64,000 bases of DNA from Candidatus Nanohaloarchaea archaeon (GTDB taxonomy: Archaea; Nanohalarchaeota; Nanosalinia; Nanosalinales; Nanosalinaceae). The stretch covers positions 1 through 64,000 of the forward strand of contig JBDGRK010000003.1 of assembly GCA_042218075.1 (NCBI GenBank), read 5' to 3'. Of this stretch, positions 16,406-40,330 are shown one piece after another. Position 1 is the stretch's first letter, and the number at the start of each line of letters is the position of its first letter. The position numbers and the translations under genes were made by a program. The notes beneath the pieces are model-generated. The model did no database searches and had not been told where the DNA came from. It saw nothing but the letters and a program-made list of their open reading frames with translations.

Positions 16406-19141
16406 TCACCTTATCCTGTATCTCAGCAGTGCAGCGATTCCTCCCATGTTCATCAGTCTCTGGCCTTCCTCGTGATCTGTTGAGATGATCTCCAGCTCGG
16501 AACCCATATCTTCAGCCTTCTCGGCCATCACGTCGACGATATCCTGGATCTCCTCAAGATTCATCTCTTCCCCACATTCATCGCACTCCACGCTCTCCTC
16601 AATCTCTGGTTGTTCCTCGAAAACTTCTTTCTCGTGGTCGTTCGGACACCTGTAAATGGCCTCGAAGTGATCAAAGTCCTCCGATATGAGAACAGTATCC
16701 ACCGCTCCCATCTCCATCGCCTTCATAACCGGTTCAAGACCGTACTCAGACTTCCCGTTCTCCTGCTTCAGGTTGTCAAAGAAATTCTTCATCAGCTGTT
16801 TCTCTTTAACAGCCTGCGAATCTTCGATCGCGTCCTCAGCCTTGTCTACAAGAAGGCTAAAACCCGCTTCTCCAGATGTATCAAGTGACTTGACATCGAT
16901 CACTTTCTCCTGAAGTTCCTGTTGAAGGTAGTCGTCTTCAACCAGCTTATCCTTGACGAATCCAGGCCCTCCGACAATTATTCCCAGCAGCTTGTCCTCC
17001 CTAGCTTTGTCAAGAAAAGCCTTCTTCGCGTTCTCCGCGATATCTCCGAGGAATGTCTTCAGCATCTCCTCTCTCAACCGGGCGAATCTCTGGGCCGAGT
17101 TGTGTACTACCAAATTGTTAGCTATGAAGTTCCCGGCCTCCACCGATATATCGACAACCTCTCTCTCCTCGAGCTTCTCTATAGATTTTATCTTGGTCGG
17201 CAGGAGAGCATTTTTGTGAATATCCTTCATTTCTTCCCTCAATTCGCCGGAGGATTCCTCTAATATGTTCCTCTGGAATGCAGTTTTGCTTATTTTCCTG
17301 TTTCCCTGCAGGTAGGTGTTTGCCTCCCAGTAATCTGAAATTTGAGATCCTTTCTGCTCGATGATTTCCCTTACCTTTTCCCCTCCCTCAAGAACCTGTC
17401 TATTGTTGCACCTGTCTTTCTCCAGGTCGCAGATTTTCTCCAGTTCTTCTTTTTTTCTATCACTGCTGAAACCTATCTTTTGCCTGAATTTTTGGAGTGA
17501 TTTAGCGTCGGTGATATCTACTGTATATCTTTTGTTGTCTGTATAGGGGTTTTCTGAATTATCGTATTCTCTGAGAGAGGAAATTATGCCCTGCTGCAGC
17601 AAAGCCGACTGTAGCTGCTGCATCAAAGTCTTATTATTTGCAGAAATTCCTACTCTGCTCCTGCTTTCCGAGCAGTGGCCTTCCGCGTCATAGAATCCTC
17701 CTATGAAGCTTTTCAGTATTTCTTCATCCGATCTGAGAATCTTTGCCGGTATTTCAGTATTTCTCGAGTCATTGATCTCCGGGAATTCGTTTTTCACGAA
17801 CTCTACCAGTGGTTTACCGAAGGCCCTGAGCCTGTAATAATTCTTGTCTTCTCTGAATTTGATACTTGTATCGCAGTCAAACTTTCTCTCAATAATGTTG
17901 CTGTAAAACTCCGCCAACTCTTTATCTCCTTCATGGAAGTTCAGCCTTTCTGGATCAAAACTGCCGTCTCCAGCGAAGTAACCCAGTATCCGTGACAGTT
18001 CTTCATCCAGTTTCTTCGGGAGCCTGTATTTCCGTGATCTGCAGTCGTACTGTGCAAATTCTAGAAAATTCAATCCAAGTTCCCTGCAGATCTTCTCAAG
18101 CAGTTCCCTTTTAACCGCTCTTTCACCCAGTTCTATCTTTGAAATCGCTGTCTGCGTGGCTCCAACTGCCTCTCCAAGCTCCCTCTGGGAAAAGCCATAA
18201 GATTTTCTTGCCTCCCTCAATTTTTCTCTCCCTTTCTCCGATATCAGAAAGGAGTTGCAGTACCTTTCCGGCGCAAGTAAACAGTCTTTTGAGCCGTTAT
18301 CCAGTTCACTGGGGAATATCAGGCTTTCTCCAACTTCCAGGTCTTCCACAGATTTTTTGGATAGTTCAGAGGTGAAGACCTCATGATCCTCCGACGCTAT
18401 CAGCTTTTTCTCTGGAAACTTTGTCTCTATCATGTGAACTTGCTTTTCCTCCCTCCACTTGTCCAGGACTTCGGAATCTCCTATCTCCATCGATTCCAGA
18501 TCCACTGACTTCACTGAATCTCCGACCTGAACCTCGCTGATTCTTTTCAGATTCCCGTCCGACATCTGGACCATTGTATCGGGATCAAGACACTGGCCCC
18601 CCGCCCGGGTCTTTCCCGGAACATTTGATTCCATGGTGTAAGCGGTCTTGATGCTGTTGCCCTGGAGGTAACCGATCGCTGCCTCGTTCTTGTCCGCCAC
18701 GATAAGACCGTATACGCGGTCGTCGACGATCATCTGCTTCAGGGGCTCCAGAACAAACTCCTTGTCGCACCTGTACCTCCTTGATTCGATAGGTTCCGGC
18801 GGAACTACTTCCCAGATCTCTATCTCCGGCCTTCCCTCTGTGTCCGATACGTTCCCGGAGAAGAATACCACACCGTTCTCCGGTGTCTCCTGTTCTTCCC
18901 GGACTTTCCTACCGATCTTACCGAGCGCATCCTGGACGTTTGTCCTGGTGTGCTTCGACTTGATGTTCTCAGCCTCGCTCTGCTCAGAGGTGATGAAGTC
19001 GGAAATCTTAGACATATCGTAGTCCGCTGGTATGTACAGGGATACGAGCTCGGTGTTCCTTCCCCTGATATCCTCCAGCTCCGAGATCAGCTTCTTCAGC
19101 TGGTACTTGTTCATAGAGTTCCCGTTGTTTTGCTCGGTCAT
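16406..19141 (-). CDS. prf1: Peptide chain release factor aRF1 containing an intein
   Basis: ELVSLYIP, NIKS, YRCD, GGQ|S, GGIAALLRY; exteins total 413 aa. Confidence 0.96.
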   Translation of the reverse strand: MTEQNNGNSMNKYQLKKLISELEDIRGRNTELVSLYIPADYDMSKISDFITSEQSEAENIKSKHTRTNVQDALGKIGRKVREEQETPENGVVFFSGNVSDTEGRPEIEIWEVVPPEPIESRRYRCDKEFVLEPLKQMIVDDRVYGLIVADKNEAAIGYLQGNSIKTAYTMESNVPGKTRAGGQCLDPDTMVQMSDGNLKRISEVQVGDSVKSVDLESMEIGDSEVLDKWREEKQVHMIETKFPEKKLIASEDHEVFTSELSKKSVEDLEVGESLIFPSELDNGSKDCLLAPERYCNSFLISEKGREKLREARKSYGFSQRELGEAVGATQTAISKIELGERAVKRELLEKICRELGLNFLEFAQYDCRSRKYRLPKKLDEELSRILGYFAGDGSFDPERLNFHEGDKELAEFYSNIIERKFDCDTSIKFREDKNYYRLRAFGKPLVEFVKNEFPEINDSRNTEIPAKILRSDEEILKSFIGGFYDAEGHCSESRSRVGISANNKTLMQQLQSALLQQGIISSLREYDNSENPYTDNKRYTVDITDAKSLQKFRQKIGFSSDRKKEELEKICDLEKDRCNNRQVLEGGEKVREIIEQKGSQISDYWEANTYLQGNRKISKTAFQRNILEESSGELREEMKDIHKNALLPTKIKSIEKLEEREVVDISVEAGNFIANNLVVHNSAQRFARLREEMLKTFLGDIAENAKKAFLDKAREDKLLGIIVGGPGFVKDKLVEDDYLQQELQEKVIDVKSLDTSGEAGFSLLVDKAEDAIEDSQAVKEKQLMKNFFDNLKQENGKSEYGLEPVMKAMEMGAVDTVLISEDFDHFEAIYRCPNDHEKEVFEEQPEIEESVECDECGEEMNLEEIQDIVDVMAEKAEDMGSELEIISTDHEEGQRLMNMGGIAALLRYRIR
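17099..18592 (-). mobile_element. Intein (498 aa) with XRE-HTH and LAGLIDADG endonuclease
   Basis: Starts CLDPDT, block B SEDH, motifs LGYFAGDG and IGGFYDAEG, ends VVHN followed by extein Ser. Confidence 0.95.
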
Positions 19142-34738: not shown

Positions 34739-35113
34739 TCAGAAATCACCTGATTCTGTCTCCACTTTACTGCATTTTTCTCTCAGTTCCTCATCCAGTG
34801 TCGCCAGTTTTTCTCCATGCATCCTGGCTAAATAAATGAAGGAAGCATCGTAGAATGCTATTTCTTTTTCACCGGCAATTTCCATAGTTTCCTGCCTGTC
34901 AGCTTTCCAAATTTCTATCTCTTTCTCAATCATATCAAGCAACTCGAGTAATTCCTCTTGTTCCTCCTGTTCGATCTGTTCAAGAAGTGTATGCTGCTTC
35001 CAGATAATGTTGCTGACTTCGTAGAATGCGAAGTCAAGTGTTTTCGAGCCAAAAAGTTGCTCAACTTCTCCCTCCTCTATAGATTTGAAGATAAAGCTTG
35101 AGTCAGCTATCAT
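34739..35113 (-). CDS. vapC: VapC PIN-domain toxin
   Basis: ADSS, YEVSN, FYDASF, LATLD. Confidence 0.88.
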   Translation of the reverse strand: MIADSSFIFKSIEEGEVEQLFGSKTLDFAFYEVSNIIWKQHTLLEQIEQEEQEELLELLDMIEKEIEIWKADRQETMEIAGEKEIAFYDASFIYLARMHGEKLATLDEELREKCSKVETESGDF

Positions 35114-35328
35114 CTATTCTCACGATCTTCCCGGATGGACTTGACGATTTCCTCATCACCTATATCCAGCTTTCTGCTCAAATCTTCAGCCTTCTCTTCA
35201 ATCTTTTCACGCCGTCTTCTTTCGATCTCCTCTTTTAAAGCTTTCCTGATAACCTCACTGACTTCTATGTTTTCTTCCGAAAGCCTGTCCTTCAGCTCGT
35301 CTGGAACCCTTGCAGAGACGGTCGCCAT
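35110..35328 (-). CDS. vapB: VapB/CcdA-like RHH antitoxin
   Basis: MATVSARVPDELK...SEVIRKAL...IREDRE; overlaps vapC by 4 nt. Confidence 0.85.
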   Translation of the reverse strand: MATVSARVPDELKDRLSEENIEVSEVIRKALKEEIERRRREKIEEKAEDLSRKLDIGDEEIVKSIREDRENR

Positions 35329-35416
35329 AACTGTAAACAAAAATGTAATACTTAAATGTTTTACGTCAAGAGTTTTTGGCCGGGGATTATTGAACATTGG
35401 CCTGATTTCTAAATAC

Positions 35417-35779
35417 ATGAATGAAGGAAGTCATTTAATTTGGGAAAATTATAGAGATTTTCTGACAGAGTTTGGCTCGGACGATTTTGAAAAAATACAA
35501 TCAAAATTGAACCCGGAAGGCAGGGTGTTGGTAAGCTATCCAGACGGTAGAAGTAGCGTGTGGACAGAAGAAGTGCTTTCCAGATATGAAGATCTGAAAA
35601 ACAGTTTCGGGAATCCGGATCAGTACATTTGTGAGACACATAACGGTTCTAAACTTGTTTATGTTTCAGATGATGGAGAATTGCTCTTCTCTGTCTATGA
35701 ATCAGGAATTGAGTCCGGCATAAGTGGTTCGATCTCTGAATGGCTACGGTTTATCGGTGAAGAACTCCTTTCAACTTGA
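35417..35779 (+). CDS. Hypothetical protein
   Basis: Acidic 120-aa ORF from MNEGSH. Confidence 0.5.
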   Translation: MNEGSHLIWENYRDFLTEFGSDDFEKIQSKLNPEGRVLVSYPDGRSSVWTEEVLSRYEDLKNSFGNPDQYICETHNGSKLVYVSDDGELLFSVYESGIESGISGSISEWLRFIGEELLST

Positions 35780-37561
35780 TCACTTCTCGTAGTACTCTCC
35801 CTTCTGTCTCTGCTCACGGTCTTTCTGGCTTTCGGGTTTGTTGGCTCTCATCCTTCCGGAATCGGGGTCCTTCCTGAATGTTATTCCAACTTCCTCCAGG
35901 AATCGGTCCATCGCATCTCCGATCTTCTCCGGCTCGGAACTACTTCCCTTCACTCCAGGCTCGCCGCTGAATACCATTCCACGATCAGCGACGTAATCCA
36001 GGAACATCAGGTCGTGGTCGATTACCATTAAAGGTTTCTCAGTCTTCCTCGCGAACTTCTTCAGCATCTTGCCGAGCTCTACCCTAGCCTCAACGTCGAG
36101 GTAGGCAGAGGGCTCATCCAGCAGGTAGACTTCCGCATCCCTGGAAAGGCAGATCGCGATCCCGACTTTCTGGAGCTCTCCTCCTGAAAGATCTTCGAGG
36201 TTGTTTTCGTAGAGCTTCTCGATCCCCAGAGGCTCTGCGATCCTGTTCTCGAACCTCTTCGATTCAATATCCGCATTTTTTGATAGAGCCTCTTCCACGG
36301 TCTCATCCTTGGCCTCAAGGTACTGCGGCTTGTAGGAGATCAAAACATTGGTAGATTCGCCTTCATCCGGCTCTATGCCTCCAGCCATCATCTTTGCGAA
36401 CACGGTCTTGCCGAGGCCGTTCTCACCGAAGATAGCCAGTATCTCTTCCTGATGGAGTTTCCCTTCTCTGGTCTCGAGCTCAAACTCTCCCTGACCGAAA
36501 TCCTTTGAGAAAGAAGGAAACTCAAGCACAGTCTTATTCTGCTCCACCCTGCTTCTCTTTGTACGATCAAACTTGATCTCGTCAGATCGGAAGCGGACAT
36601 TGTCGGAGGGAAGATAGCCCTCAAGGTACCGGTTTATGCCCTCCCTTGTCGACAGAGCGTTCGATACCATTCCGTAACCAGCAGGTTCGCCGTAGAATAT
36701 GTGTATAGAGTCCGATATCAGGTCGAGTGTCGCGAGGTCGTGCTCTACTGCCAGGACTTTTTCATCATCCAGCTTCCTGATCTCCCTGCCTGTCTCCAGT
36801 CTCTGCCCCACATCCAGGAAGGAGGAGGACTCGTCGAACATGTATAGATCCGCGTCATGGAGAAGTGTCCTGGCTATCGCCACCCTCTGGAGTTCTCCCC
36901 CGGAGAGGTTTTCCAGCTGCCTGTCAAGCAGATGACCTAAATCCAGCCTCTCCACCATCTCTTCGGCTTTTCCTCCTGAATCCTGCAGGAAATCTCTCAC
37001 CTTCCCATCGAACACCTCTGGAAGCCTTTCCACCTGCTGTGGCTTATAGGCTGATTCGACCTCGCCCTCCGAGAGAGCCTCGAAGTGGTCCTGGAGCCCT
37101 GTCCCGCGGTACTCCCTGACTATCTCTTCCCATCCGGGAGGACTCTCCCAGTTCCCGAGGTTGGGTTTGATCTCTCCTGACAGGATTTTGAGTGATACCG
37201 ACTTCCCGATGCCGTTCTCCCCGATCATTCCCACGGACCTACCCTTCTCCGGCGTGGGAACCCCGTAAAGCCTGAAGGAGTTCTCGTGGAACTGGTGGAT
37301 CTTATCCCCCTGCTCGAAGGGAAGCTGAATCATCTTGATCGCTCCCTCATGGGGGTAGCGGTTGATCGCCATCTTGTGGGACTCCATCACTTTCTCATCG
37401 TCGATGTGGAGCTCCTCGTTCTCGTCCAGGTAGAATCCTCCATCCTGGCCCGACCTGTTTAGAGGGTCGTACTTGATCACCGTCTCCCTCGCAAGATCCG
37501 GCTCGATCTTCTCCTGGTCTATGGCGACAATGAACTTCTTCGAGTTTCTGTCCGTTGACAT
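35780..37561 (-). CDS. rli: Ribosome-recycling ATPase ABCE1/RLI
   Basis: Two nucleotide-binding domains (GENGIGKS, LSGGELQR; GENGLGKT, LSGGELQK), YKPQ, ITFRKD, RANK. Confidence 0.95.
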   Translation of the reverse strand: MSTDRNSKKFIVAIDQEKIEPDLARETVIKYDPLNRSGQDGGFYLDENEELHIDDEKVMESHKMAINRYPHEGAIKMIQLPFEQGDKIHQFHENSFRLYGVPTPEKGRSVGMIGENGIGKSVSLKILSGEIKPNLGNWESPPGWEEIVREYRGTGLQDHFEALSEGEVESAYKPQQVERLPEVFDGKVRDFLQDSGGKAEEMVERLDLGHLLDRQLENLSGGELQRVAIARTLLHDADLYMFDESSSFLDVGQRLETGREIRKLDDEKVLAVEHDLATLDLISDSIHIFYGEPAGYGMVSNALSTREGINRYLEGYLPSDNVRFRSDEIKFDRTKRSRVEQNKTVLEFPSFSKDFGQGEFELETREGKLHQEEILAIFGENGLGKTVFAKMMAGGIEPDEGESTNVLISYKPQYLEAKDETVEEALSKNADIESKRFENRIAEPLGIEKLYENNLEDLSGGELQKVGIAICLSRDAEVYLLDEPSAYLDVEARVELGKMLKKFARKTEKPLMVIDHDLMFLDYVADRGMVFSGEPGVKGSSSEPEKIGDAMDRFLEEVGITFRKDPDSGRMRANKPESQKDREQRQKGEYYEK

Positions 37562-37865: not shown

Positions 37866-38372
37866 CTACTCAAAGCTCAGGCTGTACTCTTCCTCGGTTA
37901 TCTCCGCGATTATATTCTCAAATTCTTCGACGGAGAGGTTGATCTTCCCCTCGTACTCCTCGTCGACGACAATCTTCTTGCTCTGTCCCTCCGGCGAAAA
38001 GACGGTGTTAATGGATTCAACTTCTGCAGGACTCAGGAGACCCTTGATCGTGTCTATGTCGTCCTCGGCTTTTTCCACTACGCGTATCGATTTCCCTATC
38101 CTGTCGGCAACTTCCTTCACAATATCGCCGCTTCTTCCCACTACTTTTGCGCCGTCTCCCTCGGCCGTCACGATCACGATCACGTTCTCGGCCTCGAAAA
38201 CTTTAAGGATTTCAGAGTCCTTCAGCGAGGCGTATTCCGAGCTGAGATCGTGTAGGATCCTTGAGACCTCTATATCTGTCTCCGTTATCTCTCCGTCCTC
38301 GAGCTTCTCCTCGCACATGCTGCATAGCTCGTCCTCGCTCTTGACGCATACGTTGCAGATTGGAGTCTTCAT
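37866..38372 (-). CDS. Zn-finger + KH-domain protein (archaeal NusA-like)
   Basis: ICNVC...LCSMC; VVGRSG KH loop; IRVVE. Confidence 0.8.
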   Translation of the reverse strand: MKTPICNVCVKSEDELCSMCEEKLEDGEITETDIEVSRILHDLSSEYASLKDSEILKVFEAENVIVIVTAEGDGAKVVGRSGDIVKEVADRIGKSIRVVEKAEDDIDTIKGLLSPAEVESINTVFSPEGQSKKIVVDEEYEGKINLSVEEFENIIAEITEEEYSLSFE

Positions 38373-39262: not shown

Positions 39263-40330
39263 TCAGTTCTCGATTACCTCGATTCCCAGGTCGTTGACGT
39301 CTCCGCTGACTTCCGTTTCGTGTTGCTCTTCCACGTCTCCGAGGACGTATGGTGACTCCACGCCTGTCACGATTGAGATCACCTGGAGCTTTCCTTCAAG
39401 CTCATCCTTGACTCTCGCGCCCCAGATCACCTGGGCCTTGTTGTCGAGGTGTCTCTTGACTTTCTGGCCCACCTCGTTGATCTCGTTCAGGGTCAGGTCC
39501 TGTCCTCCAGCGATGTGGATTAGAGCTCCATTCGCTCCTTCGAACTCCACGTCGAGCAGAGGATTGCTCAGCGCCTCGTGGATTGCTTCTTCTCCCTTGT
39601 TGTTGGTGTCGCTCTCTCCGTATCCCACTACAGCTACACCTCCTTCGTTCATGATGGTCTGGACGTCTGCGTAGTCGAGGTTGACGAGTGAAGGTTTTGA
39701 GATCGTTTCAGTCACGCCCTTGATCATCGTTGTAATCAGTTCGTCCGCGACTCCAAAGGCCTGGTCAAGAGGCATGTCTCCAGCAATATCCAGTAAGCGA
39801 TCATTCTCAATCACGATCGCGGTGTCTACGTGCTGTCGCAGCCTGTAGAGGCCATCCTCTGCCTTGCTCATCCTTGCACCTTCAATCTCGAATGGCATCG
39901 TGACTGTTCCTATAACTATGCAGTCCTCCTTCTTCGCGATCTCAGCCAGTACCGGAGCCGCACCAGTTCCTGTTCCTCCGCCCATTCCGGCTGTGAGGAA
40001 AACCATGTCAGCGTCCTTGAAGAGCGATCTGAGTTCAGCCCTGTTCTCTTCGGCCGATCTTGCTCCTTTCTCAGGTTCTCCTCCTGCTCCGAGACCTTTT
40101 GTGAGGTCTCTTCCCACGAGAATTTTTCGATCAGCAGAGCTCATCTCCAGGTGCTGCTTGTCGGTGTTGATCGCGACAGTGTCAGCTCCGTCGACCTCCT
40201 TGTTGTGGATTCGGGTAACCTGGTTGTTTCCAGCTCCTCCTATTCCTACAACAAGGATTCTAGCATCTTTTACATCATCGAGGTTTTCGACTTCGTTTTC
40301 GGATTCGGTATTATCGATTAGGGATTCCAT
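39263..40330 (-). CDS. ftsZ: Cell division protein FtsZ
   Basis: GIGGAGNN, INTD, AGMGGGTGTG, VNLDYADV, IWGA. Confidence 0.98.
   Translation of the reverse strand: MESLIDNTESENEVENLDDVKDARILVVGIGGAGNNQVTRIHNKEVDGADTVAINTDKQHLEMSSADRKILVGRDLTKGLGAGGEPEKGARSAEENRAELRSLFKDADMVFLTAGMGGGTGTGAAPVLAEIAKKEDCIVIGTVTMPFEIEGARMSKAEDGLYRLRQHVDTAIVIENDRLLDIAGDMPLDQAFGVADELITTMIKGVTETISKPSLVNLDYADVQTIMNEGGVAVVGYGESDTNNKGEEAIHEALSNPLLDVEFEGANGALIHIAGGQDLTLNEINEVGQKVKRHLDNKAQVIWGARVKDELEGKLQVISIVTGVESPYVLGDVEEQHETEVSGDVNDLGIEVIEN

Follow-up and report, generated by a model that had tools for sequence, protein, structure and literature searches.

A cysteine-free N-terminal domain in the ABCE1 of nanohaloarchaea, an apparently undescribed variant of the ribosome-splitting ATPase

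Can the ribosome-splitting ATPase ABCE1 (Rli1, RNase L inhibitor) do without its iron-sulfur (Fe-S) clusters? The question is raised by one gene in a 64,000-nucleotide stretch of DNA from a Candidatus Nanohaloarchaea archaeon (NCBI GenBank assembly GCA_042218075.1, contig JBDGRK010000003.1, positions 1 to 64,000 of the forward strand), hereafter the window, which encodes an ABCE1 whose N-terminal domain contains no cysteine (Cys). ABCE1 constructs lacking the Fe-S (FeS) domain and Cys-to-Ser mutants of Rli1 have been reported to be defective or lethal, and the clusters of ABCE1 are one reason why Fe-S biogenesis is indispensable in eukaryotes. To our knowledge, the actual role of these clusters has never been settled. 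Published accounts place ABCE1 in all archaea and eukaryotes and call its FeS domain essential (PMC6088178, PMC8153317); the canonical protein carries eight conserved Cys, in the motifs CX4CX3CX3CP and CX2CX2CX3CP, which ligate two [4Fe-4S] clusters (PMC6088178). We regard it as probable that the window encodes the single working ABCE1 of its organism, and that the N-terminal head domain of this protein is a metal-free structural module or wedge, derived from the FeS domain, from which the clusters have been lost.

The gene occupies window positions 35780-37561 on the reverse strand and is a complete open reading frame (ORF) of 593 amino acids plus stop codon, identified from the ORF list, a family profile and a structural homologue. 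The NCBIfam profile NF009945 (ribosome biogenesis/translation initiation ATPase RLI) matches at 690 bits against a cut-off of 469, with residues 11-592 on profile positions 4-589 of 592. The ABCE1 of P. abyssi (3bk7) is co-linear with the full protein (E 7.9e-160, residues 9-591 to 19-605), and over the same residues 9-591 this includes the ABCE1-specific body, namely the helix-loop-helix insertion of the first nucleotide-binding domain (NBD1), hinge 1 and hinge 2. In translation, both NBDs retain the Walker A motif, the LSGGE signature, the Asp-Glu of Walker B and the His of the H-loop. In NBD1 these are Walker A at residues 114-121 (G114-S121; 37199..37222, placed by the 3bk7 alignment as well), the signature at residues 219-223 (36893..36907), then D243-E244 and H274; in NBD2 they are Walker A at residues 379-386 (G379-T386; 36404..36427, likewise placed by 3bk7), the signature at residues 458-462 (36176..36190), then D482-E483 and H516, all on the reverse strand. 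A full-length AlphaFold2 (AF2) model, built on 27 Cys-free sequences, has a mean predicted local distance difference test score (pLDDT) of 86.4; over 520 columns, superposition of this predicted model on the FeS-less ABCE1 crystal structure 1yqt gives a root-mean-square deviation of 2.2 A and a template modelling (TM) score of 0.92. For 3bk7 the TM score is 0.82. The protein falls far short of the ABC-F family profiles (NF000355, 161 bits against a cut-off of 380; EttA NF008775, 113 against 599). Two in-frame stop codons lie directly upstream, which excludes a hidden Cys-rich N-terminal extension.

The head domain (residues 1-81; 37319..37561, reverse strand) was delimited from the translation, profile matches, the AF2 models and conservation. 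No Cys occurs ahead of the first Walker A motif (residues 1-113), and the sole Cys of the protein is C471 in NBD2. In HMMER alignments to 6tmf_d and 3bk7, the remnant of the first Cys motif lies at residues 19-33 (37463..37507, reverse strand), where ligands C1-C4 have become I19, A24, V28 and D32; HMMER alignment places the remnant of the second at residues 58-70 (37352..37390, reverse strand), where C5-C8 have become V58, S61, A65 and Y69 and one residue, H62, has been inserted. All eight ligand Cys are thereby replaced. A profile of 28 Cys-free heads nevertheless matches the FeS domain of the S. solfataricus protein at E 1.1e-5 (residues 3-86 of 6tmf_d) and that of 3bk7 at E 2.3e-4, and 11 of the 12 PDB sequences that it finds at E<=10 are ABCE1. 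With the head as a single sequence, phmmer of the PDB returned nothing at E<=10. Neither Fer4_RLI (PF04068) nor Fer4 (PF00037) is among the 13 Pfam families that match the protein at E<=1, and neither matches anywhere in the genome to which the window belongs (G000; 1.10 Mb in 40 contigs, 92% complete). Given the Cys content of this genome (0.85%), an absence of Cys over some 80 residues is not unusual alone; the signal is therefore not the absence as such, but the replacement of all eight otherwise invariant ligand columns, consistently across the clade. By these alignments the head descends from a two-cluster FeS domain and cannot ligate two [4Fe-4S] clusters through Cys, and the protein is very probably cluster-free.

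These results bear out much of the sequence-only reading from which the analysis started. It had named the protein as an ABCE1 with a Cys-free N-terminal domain, which the ORF, NF009945 and the translation confirm, and it had held that the domain keeps its length and scaffold; its span, 37320-37561, covers residues 1-81, its scaffold string is found letter for letter, and the profile matches to FeS domains agree. As one finding that would refute it, it had named a second, Cys-containing ABCE1 in the genome. The gene is single-copy in G000, with one match over the NF009945 cut-off and the next best at 76 bits, and a Cys-bearing second copy is excluded by this count together with the lack of any Fer4_RLI or Fer4 match. 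A separate FeS-domain protein acting in trans was likewise excluded, as there are no Fer4 matches and no CxxCxxCxxxC motif in the 1441 crude ORFs of the genome.

The Cys-free state is shared by the relatives of this organism. Of the 30 ABCE1 sequences read from related genomes, 28 are Cys-free at the eight ligand columns. In family f1, 23 of 24 sequences carry I (or L)/A/V/D and V/A (or S)/H/A/Y at these positions, and in family f4 all five carry V/V/A/D and V/E (or S)/H/I/I; four relatives have an ABCE1 without any Cys over the whole protein. The ABCE1 of G028 (family f5) keeps both full motifs, with eight Cys. No truncated or head-less full-length form occurs among the 30 genomic sequences. 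Across the phylum (70 genomes), ABCE1 was matched at E<=1e-30 in 56 genomes, some of these matches being fragments without the N-terminus, and 52 of them exceed the cut-off; Fer4_RLI was matched in only two of the 70 genomes, G007 and G028. With the head as query, 118 of the best 120 protein clusters lack any Cys ahead of Walker A; the other two contain a single Cys, at another site. The organism names on these clusters are nanohaloarchaeal, including Ca. Nanohalobium constans and Ca. Nanosalina, with the exception of P0026, a partial sequence labelled Aenigmatarchaeota. A profile search across 1.84 billion representative proteins gave only 21 matches at E<=0.001.

The haloarchaea, the class of the likely hosts, show the opposite state. 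Fer4_RLI is present in all 151 evenly sampled genomes of their class, and 80 of 80 haloarchaeal ABCE1 loci from many genera have nine Cys and both motifs, in a set biased by the Cys-bearing query with which it was gathered. Salt adaptation as the cause of Cys loss is ruled out, since haloarchaea retain the Fe-S domain. One sequence with a haloarchaeal source label stands apart: P0144, in the P0122 cluster, is a 206-residue truncated Cys-free ABCE1 fragment of the f4 type, comprising the head and the start of NBD1, on a 3.5-Mb contig labelled Haloplanus. It may represent a transfer from symbiont to host.

How the ligands were lost is suggested by a small group of intermediates. The ABCE1 of G007, a member of family f1, keeps C1, C2, C3, C7 and C8, has D, V and A at the other positions together with the inserted H, and matches Fer4_RLI. 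In the metagenomic proteins P0131, P0133, P0134 and P0135, C1, C2, C3 and C8 are always kept, and C7 is Cys or Ser. In all five proteins C4 has become D and C5 has become V, C6 is A or M, and the His insertion is present. Barthelme et al. in 2007 reportedly found the ABCE1-type cluster to be held by C1, C2, C3 and C8, and the ferredoxin-like cluster by C4-C7. The same two kinds of cluster are named in PMC8153317, which gives the kinds only. From the retention of C1, C2, C3 and C8 and this assignment, G007 and the four metagenomic proteins can be read as one-cluster intermediates.

The one-cluster forms, f1 and f4 share D32, V58 and H62, and f1 and f4 differ at C1, C2, C3, C7 and C8 (I/A/V/A/Y vs V/V/A/I/I). 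In a tree of the ATPase body (columns 96-593, head excluded), f4 forms a clade with SH-aLRT 95 and f1, including G007, one with SH-aLRT 99. Forcing all 28 Cys-free sequences into a single clade costs 30.6 log-likelihood units and is rejected by the approximately unbiased (AU) test (p-AU 0.0198), for a group that was named after inspection of what is a quick tree. The simplest reading would be a stepwise loss, completed separately in two families. The ferredoxin-like cluster (C4-C7) would have been lost first, and once, in the common ancestor of f1 and f4; the ABCE1-type cluster (C1, C2, C3, C8) would have gone later, in two separate events, one in f4 and the other inside f1. Alternatively, the head domain may have recombined.

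The head that remains is well conserved. The fraction of the majority residue is 0.79 over columns 10-81 and 0.75 for the remaining protein. The nonsynonymous rate (dN) is lower in the head than in the rest of the protein in six of seven pairs, the exception being L010-L011 (0.048 vs 0.033). Synonymous divergence (dS) is saturated in most pairs, and in the sole pair in which it is not, the head has a dN/dS ratio (omega) of 0.08 and the remainder one of 0.125. A 95-residue N-terminal alignment of the 28 Cys-free sequences (A1) has 20 invariant columns, of which 17 lie inside the domain; D32, P33, L34, N35, R36, G38, V58, M59, H62, P70 and E83 are among the invariant residues, H62 in 28 of 28. 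By these measures the head domain appears to be under purifying selection, and its conservation is no lower than that of the ATPase body.

Conservation extends to the predicted ribosome-facing surface. In the post-splitting complex of S. solfataricus ABCE1, P25, R28 and S29 of the FeS domain touch Q76 and H100 of uS12, residues R2, K15, N17, E19 and K59 touch rRNA, and N70, E74 and E76 lie in the cantilever (PMC7196836). Profile alignment equates P33, R36 and S37 with P25, R28 and S29, and E83 with E74. The motif P33-x-x-R36-S37 (37451..37465, reverse strand), located from A1 and the mapping to the S. solfataricus protein, is invariant in A1 at P33 and R36 and has S or A at position 37. The uS12 of G000 keeps Q69 and H93 at the positions of the partners Q76 and H100, although this is weak support, as uS12 is highly conserved anyway. 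The uS12 contacts described for S. solfataricus are thus predicted to be retained by the head domain.

Two AF2 runs, domain-only and full-length, agree on a strand-helix-strand-strand-helix-strand arrangement of the head, with strands at residues 10-14, 43-45, 51-53 and 75-79 and helices at 21-31 and 55-68. Ligand positions 24 and 28 fall in the first predicted helix, and 58, 61 and 65 in the second, where the insertion of H62 changes the spacing to i, i+3, i+7, i+11 and so places the residues of the second motif on one helix face. In these models, two amphipathic helices may pack a hydrophobic core at the former cluster site, and D32 and H62 probably pair at the site of the ferredoxin-like cluster.

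From these elements a mechanism can be proposed for a head without clusters. The former ligand positions, now mostly hydrophobic (I19, A24, V28, V58, A65, Y69), would take over the core, with D32 and the inserted H62 occupying the sites of two ligands of the ferredoxin-like cluster. Since the ribosome-facing surface appears to be kept, in the P-x-x-R-S contact to uS12 and the cantilever residue E83, the mechanism itself would be canonical: ATP-driven closure of the NBDs would swing the head into the subunit interface, beside aRF1 or Pelota, and the head would then dock at h44 and uS12 of the 30S subunit. Both splitting partners are encoded in the genome, aRF1 inside the window and Pelota on contig C17.

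Several points weigh against a metal-free wedge as we have set it out. The absence of metal, the new fold of the head and the retained splitting activity are predicted. The models of the head are of low confidence, with a pLDDT of 63.7 in the domain-only run and of 57-73 for the head in the full-length model. When the domain model was compared with the PDB by Foldseek, nothing matched at E<=0.001, and 3bk7 ranked first (E 0.23, TM 0.35), ahead of ferredoxins. VIA-align against 48,161 chains, run with this weak model, did no better than Z 3.8, for sandwich folds of a generic strand-helix type; with no significant fold match, we make no claim on the fold of the head. Residues at rRNA contacts described for the S. 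solfataricus protein have changed (K15 to L23, E19 to T27, K59 to N67). The order of loss depends on the reported assignment of C1, C2, C3 and C8 versus C4-C7 to separate clusters, on the post hoc group of the AU test, and on a quick tree in which G007 sits in a basal polytomy within f1. In A1, M59 does not vary and E60 and H52 hardly do, so that together with D32 and H62 they offer a possible metal site without Cys.

This last point leads to the strongest competing explanation, which we nonetheless consider unlikely: the head may still bind metal through ligands other than Cys, for instance in a mononuclear Zn or Fe site formed by D32, H62, E60 and H52 (or M59) that replaces the ferredoxin-like cluster, and would then be cluster-free without being metal-free. 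D32 replaces ligand C4, H62 is inserted beside ligand C6 of the same former cluster, and both are invariant in 28 of 28 sequences. They are also found in the one-cluster forms G007, P0131, P0133, P0134 and P0135, which indicates that they arose together with the loss of the ferredoxin-like cluster. A simple Asp-His pair, or a polar contact that is buried, would account for this pattern too, however; H52 is missing from the one-cluster forms and from G015-like sequences, and no family with a metal site matched the head domain in Pfam, Foldseek or VIA-align.

Less likely again, the Cys-free head could be a decaying relic that has lost its function as a wedge and serves only in another role, such as 30S anti-association or initiation, as a stage before the complete loss of ABCE1. 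Such a loss does appear to have taken place in f3, a sister family in the same order, where ABCE1 was found in none of 10 genomes (80-93% complete; G026, G029, G031, G033, G035, G037, G039, G041, G042 and G043). In the five of these that were searched individually, the best matches, none above 94 bits where the cut-off is 469, are to generic ABC ATPases. Both aRF1 and Pelota are present in the four f3 genomes tested, and bacterial ribosome recycling factor, as a substitute for ABCE1, was found in none of five tested. The phylum can apparently live without the factor, and an archaeal family lacking ABCE1 would be remarkable in itself. The low confidence of the AF2 model of the head would also suit a relic. 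A decaying domain would not, however, be expected to match or exceed the ATPase body in conservation with a low dN, nor to hold its length, its uS12-contact and its cantilever residues invariant; there are also no truncated or head-less full-length forms, and the ATPase motifs are all intact. We therefore favour a working head domain over a relic.

The sequence-only reading had proposed a further explanation, in which a reduced symbiont lost Fe-S assembly and was forced into iron-independent ribosome recycling. The Fe-S proteome of G000 does look tiny: Elp3 is its one radical S-adenosylmethionine (SAM) gene, Fer4 is unmatched, and the crude ORFs contain no CxxCxxCxxxC motif. For PriL, which that reading had proposed to check, there is no PF04104 match in this genome; a fused short primase is described for nanohaloarchaea (PMC3914693). 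The assembly genes are nonetheless present. SufB, split by an intein, lies on contig C15 (689 bits against a cut-off of 346), together with a SufD-like gene (TIGR01981, 194.6 bits, below the cut-off of 222; Pfam SUFBD_core, 188.7 bits) and SufS (480 bits against 475), which is cut short where the contig stops; SufC (277 bits against 213) is found at the end of contig C4. Client enzymes keep their ligands, namely Elp3 (628 bits, CxxxCxxC at residues 164-171 intact), Dph2 (204 bits, three ligand Cys at 67, 175 and 302/304) and XPD/Rad3 (four Cys in the FeS segment). The loss of Cys is accordingly specific to ABCE1, and an explanation by loss of Fe-S assembly is very improbable.

The test that the same reading had suggested, a comparison of N-termini across DPANN archaea correlated with the loss of suf genes, came out in two ways within this phylum: the Cys loss is clade-wide, with 28 of 30 relatives, and the expected correlation is reversed. 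SufB is found in 49 of 50 f1 genomes and six of eight f4 genomes, the Cys-free families, in one of 10 f3 genomes, and not in the single f5 genome, G028, with its eight-Cys ABCE1. G028 and most f3 genomes have radical-SAM enzymes (up to 18 in the f3 genus g23), with SufB and SufD not found, and so must use another Fe-S assembly system.

Two of these Fe-S genes have structures of their own to report. SufB is an 826-residue frame at L046 5842-8322 (G000:C15:71841-74321, forward strand), whose profile match is split around an intein-like insert; the same split occurs in G006. In the XPD/Rad3 gene (L046 1391-4753, G000:C15, forward strand), an intein is cut by one in-frame TAA into ORFs of 219 and 869 residues, with the Fe-S Cys downstream intact; the TAA may be a sequencing error or the mark of a broken gene.

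An artefact of assembly or annotation, a pseudogene or a contaminant is a negligible prospect, with nothing found in its favour, the ABCE1 frame intact over 593 residues, and the Cys-free state repeated both in family members whose genome is a single contig and in 118 of 120 independent clusters from several sources.

As to why clusters would be given up by a lineage that can still build them, our leading guess is the shedding of an oxygen-labile and iron-costly cofactor from an abundant, essential protein in an organism with a very small Fe-S proteome. Reactive oxygen species are reported to attack the clusters of Rli1 (PMC3442406). An Fe/Mn superoxide dismutase (SOD) is present in 42 of 50 f1, four of eight f4 and three of 10 f3 genomes and was found neither in G007 nor in G028; the aerobic-type SUF system has a similar distribution. 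These patterns fit a link to oxygen exposure, but the correlation is loose, and the genomes are kin and so not independent. Aerobic haloarchaea, moreover, keep their clusters in the 151 sampled genomes, which speaks against a rationale of oxygen or iron economy.

Other features of the locus are of separate interest. Directly downstream of ABCE1, a PIN-domain gene (124 residues) and an overlapping small upstream ORF (102 residues) lie at window positions 34739-35418 on the reverse strand and look like a VapBC-type toxin-antitoxin pair. Upstream are a gene with a Cys-pair N-terminal segment and a NusA-like KH domain (37866-38372) and FtsZ (39263-40330). The aRF1 gene (16406-19141, reverse strand) is a 911-residue frame with an intein, containing LAGLIDADG and helix-turn-helix domains, between eRF1 domains 1 and 2.

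Set beside known systems, the protein is closest to canonical ABCE1 (3bk7; 6tmf; yeast 3j16 and 5ll6), with which it shares the orthologous family, the twin NBDs, the insertion and hinges, the length and position of the head, the P-x-x-R-S motif for uS12 and the cantilever Glu; it differs in lacking all eight ligand Cys, in the His inserted into the second motif, and in matching neither Fer4_RLI nor Fer4. It resembles haloarchaeal ABCE1 in its acidic, salt-adapted protein type and its habitat, but haloarchaea keep the Fe-S domain with both Cys motifs. The one-cluster proteins G007, P0131, P0133, P0134 and P0135 differ from it in retaining C1, C2, C3 and C8. FeS-less laboratory constructs (1yqt, 3ozx) and Cys-to-Ser Rli1 mutants are cluster-free as well, and the ATPase body is structurally the same as in 1yqt and 3ozx; in these the domain has been deleted or destabilised, whereas here it is retained, remodelled and conserved. 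ABC-F ATPases (EttA and relatives) are also soluble, twin-NBD, ribosome-binding ATPases without Fe-S, but belong to another family and have no N-terminal head domain. We found no published description of ABCE1 in nanohaloarchaea or DPANN archaea, or of a natural Cys-free ABCE1, in a search that lay outside subscription journals and supplements and judged Fe-S papers mostly by title. The Cys-free nanohaloarchaeal protein is apparently an undescribed variant of the known ABCE1 family.

Taken as a whole, the Nanohaloarchaeota may hold a natural series that starts with the eight-Cys ABCE1 of G028, passes through one-cluster forms (G007 and the four proteins from metagenomes) and ends in cluster-free forms at which two families arrived independently, with f3 lacking ABCE1 and with the head as a new metal-free fold doing the same mechanical job. 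We put this forward tentatively, as a picture about as likely to need revision as to stand, and perhaps slightly more so. A phylum with a conserved cluster-less head and living one-cluster intermediates amounts to a natural experiment, and because the cultivated Ca. Nanohalobium constans, as its source names it, has the same form, the question is directly testable. The clusters long held to be indispensable for ABCE1 are probably only scaffolding. If the protein does split ribosomes, the clusters serve as scaffolding rather than chemistry, and the substitutions described here show a route to an oxygen-proof, iron-free ABCE1. If that is true, the clusters of ABCE1 would be structural only, and translation in archaea and eukaryotes could bypass its supposedly universal dependence on Fe-S biogenesis.

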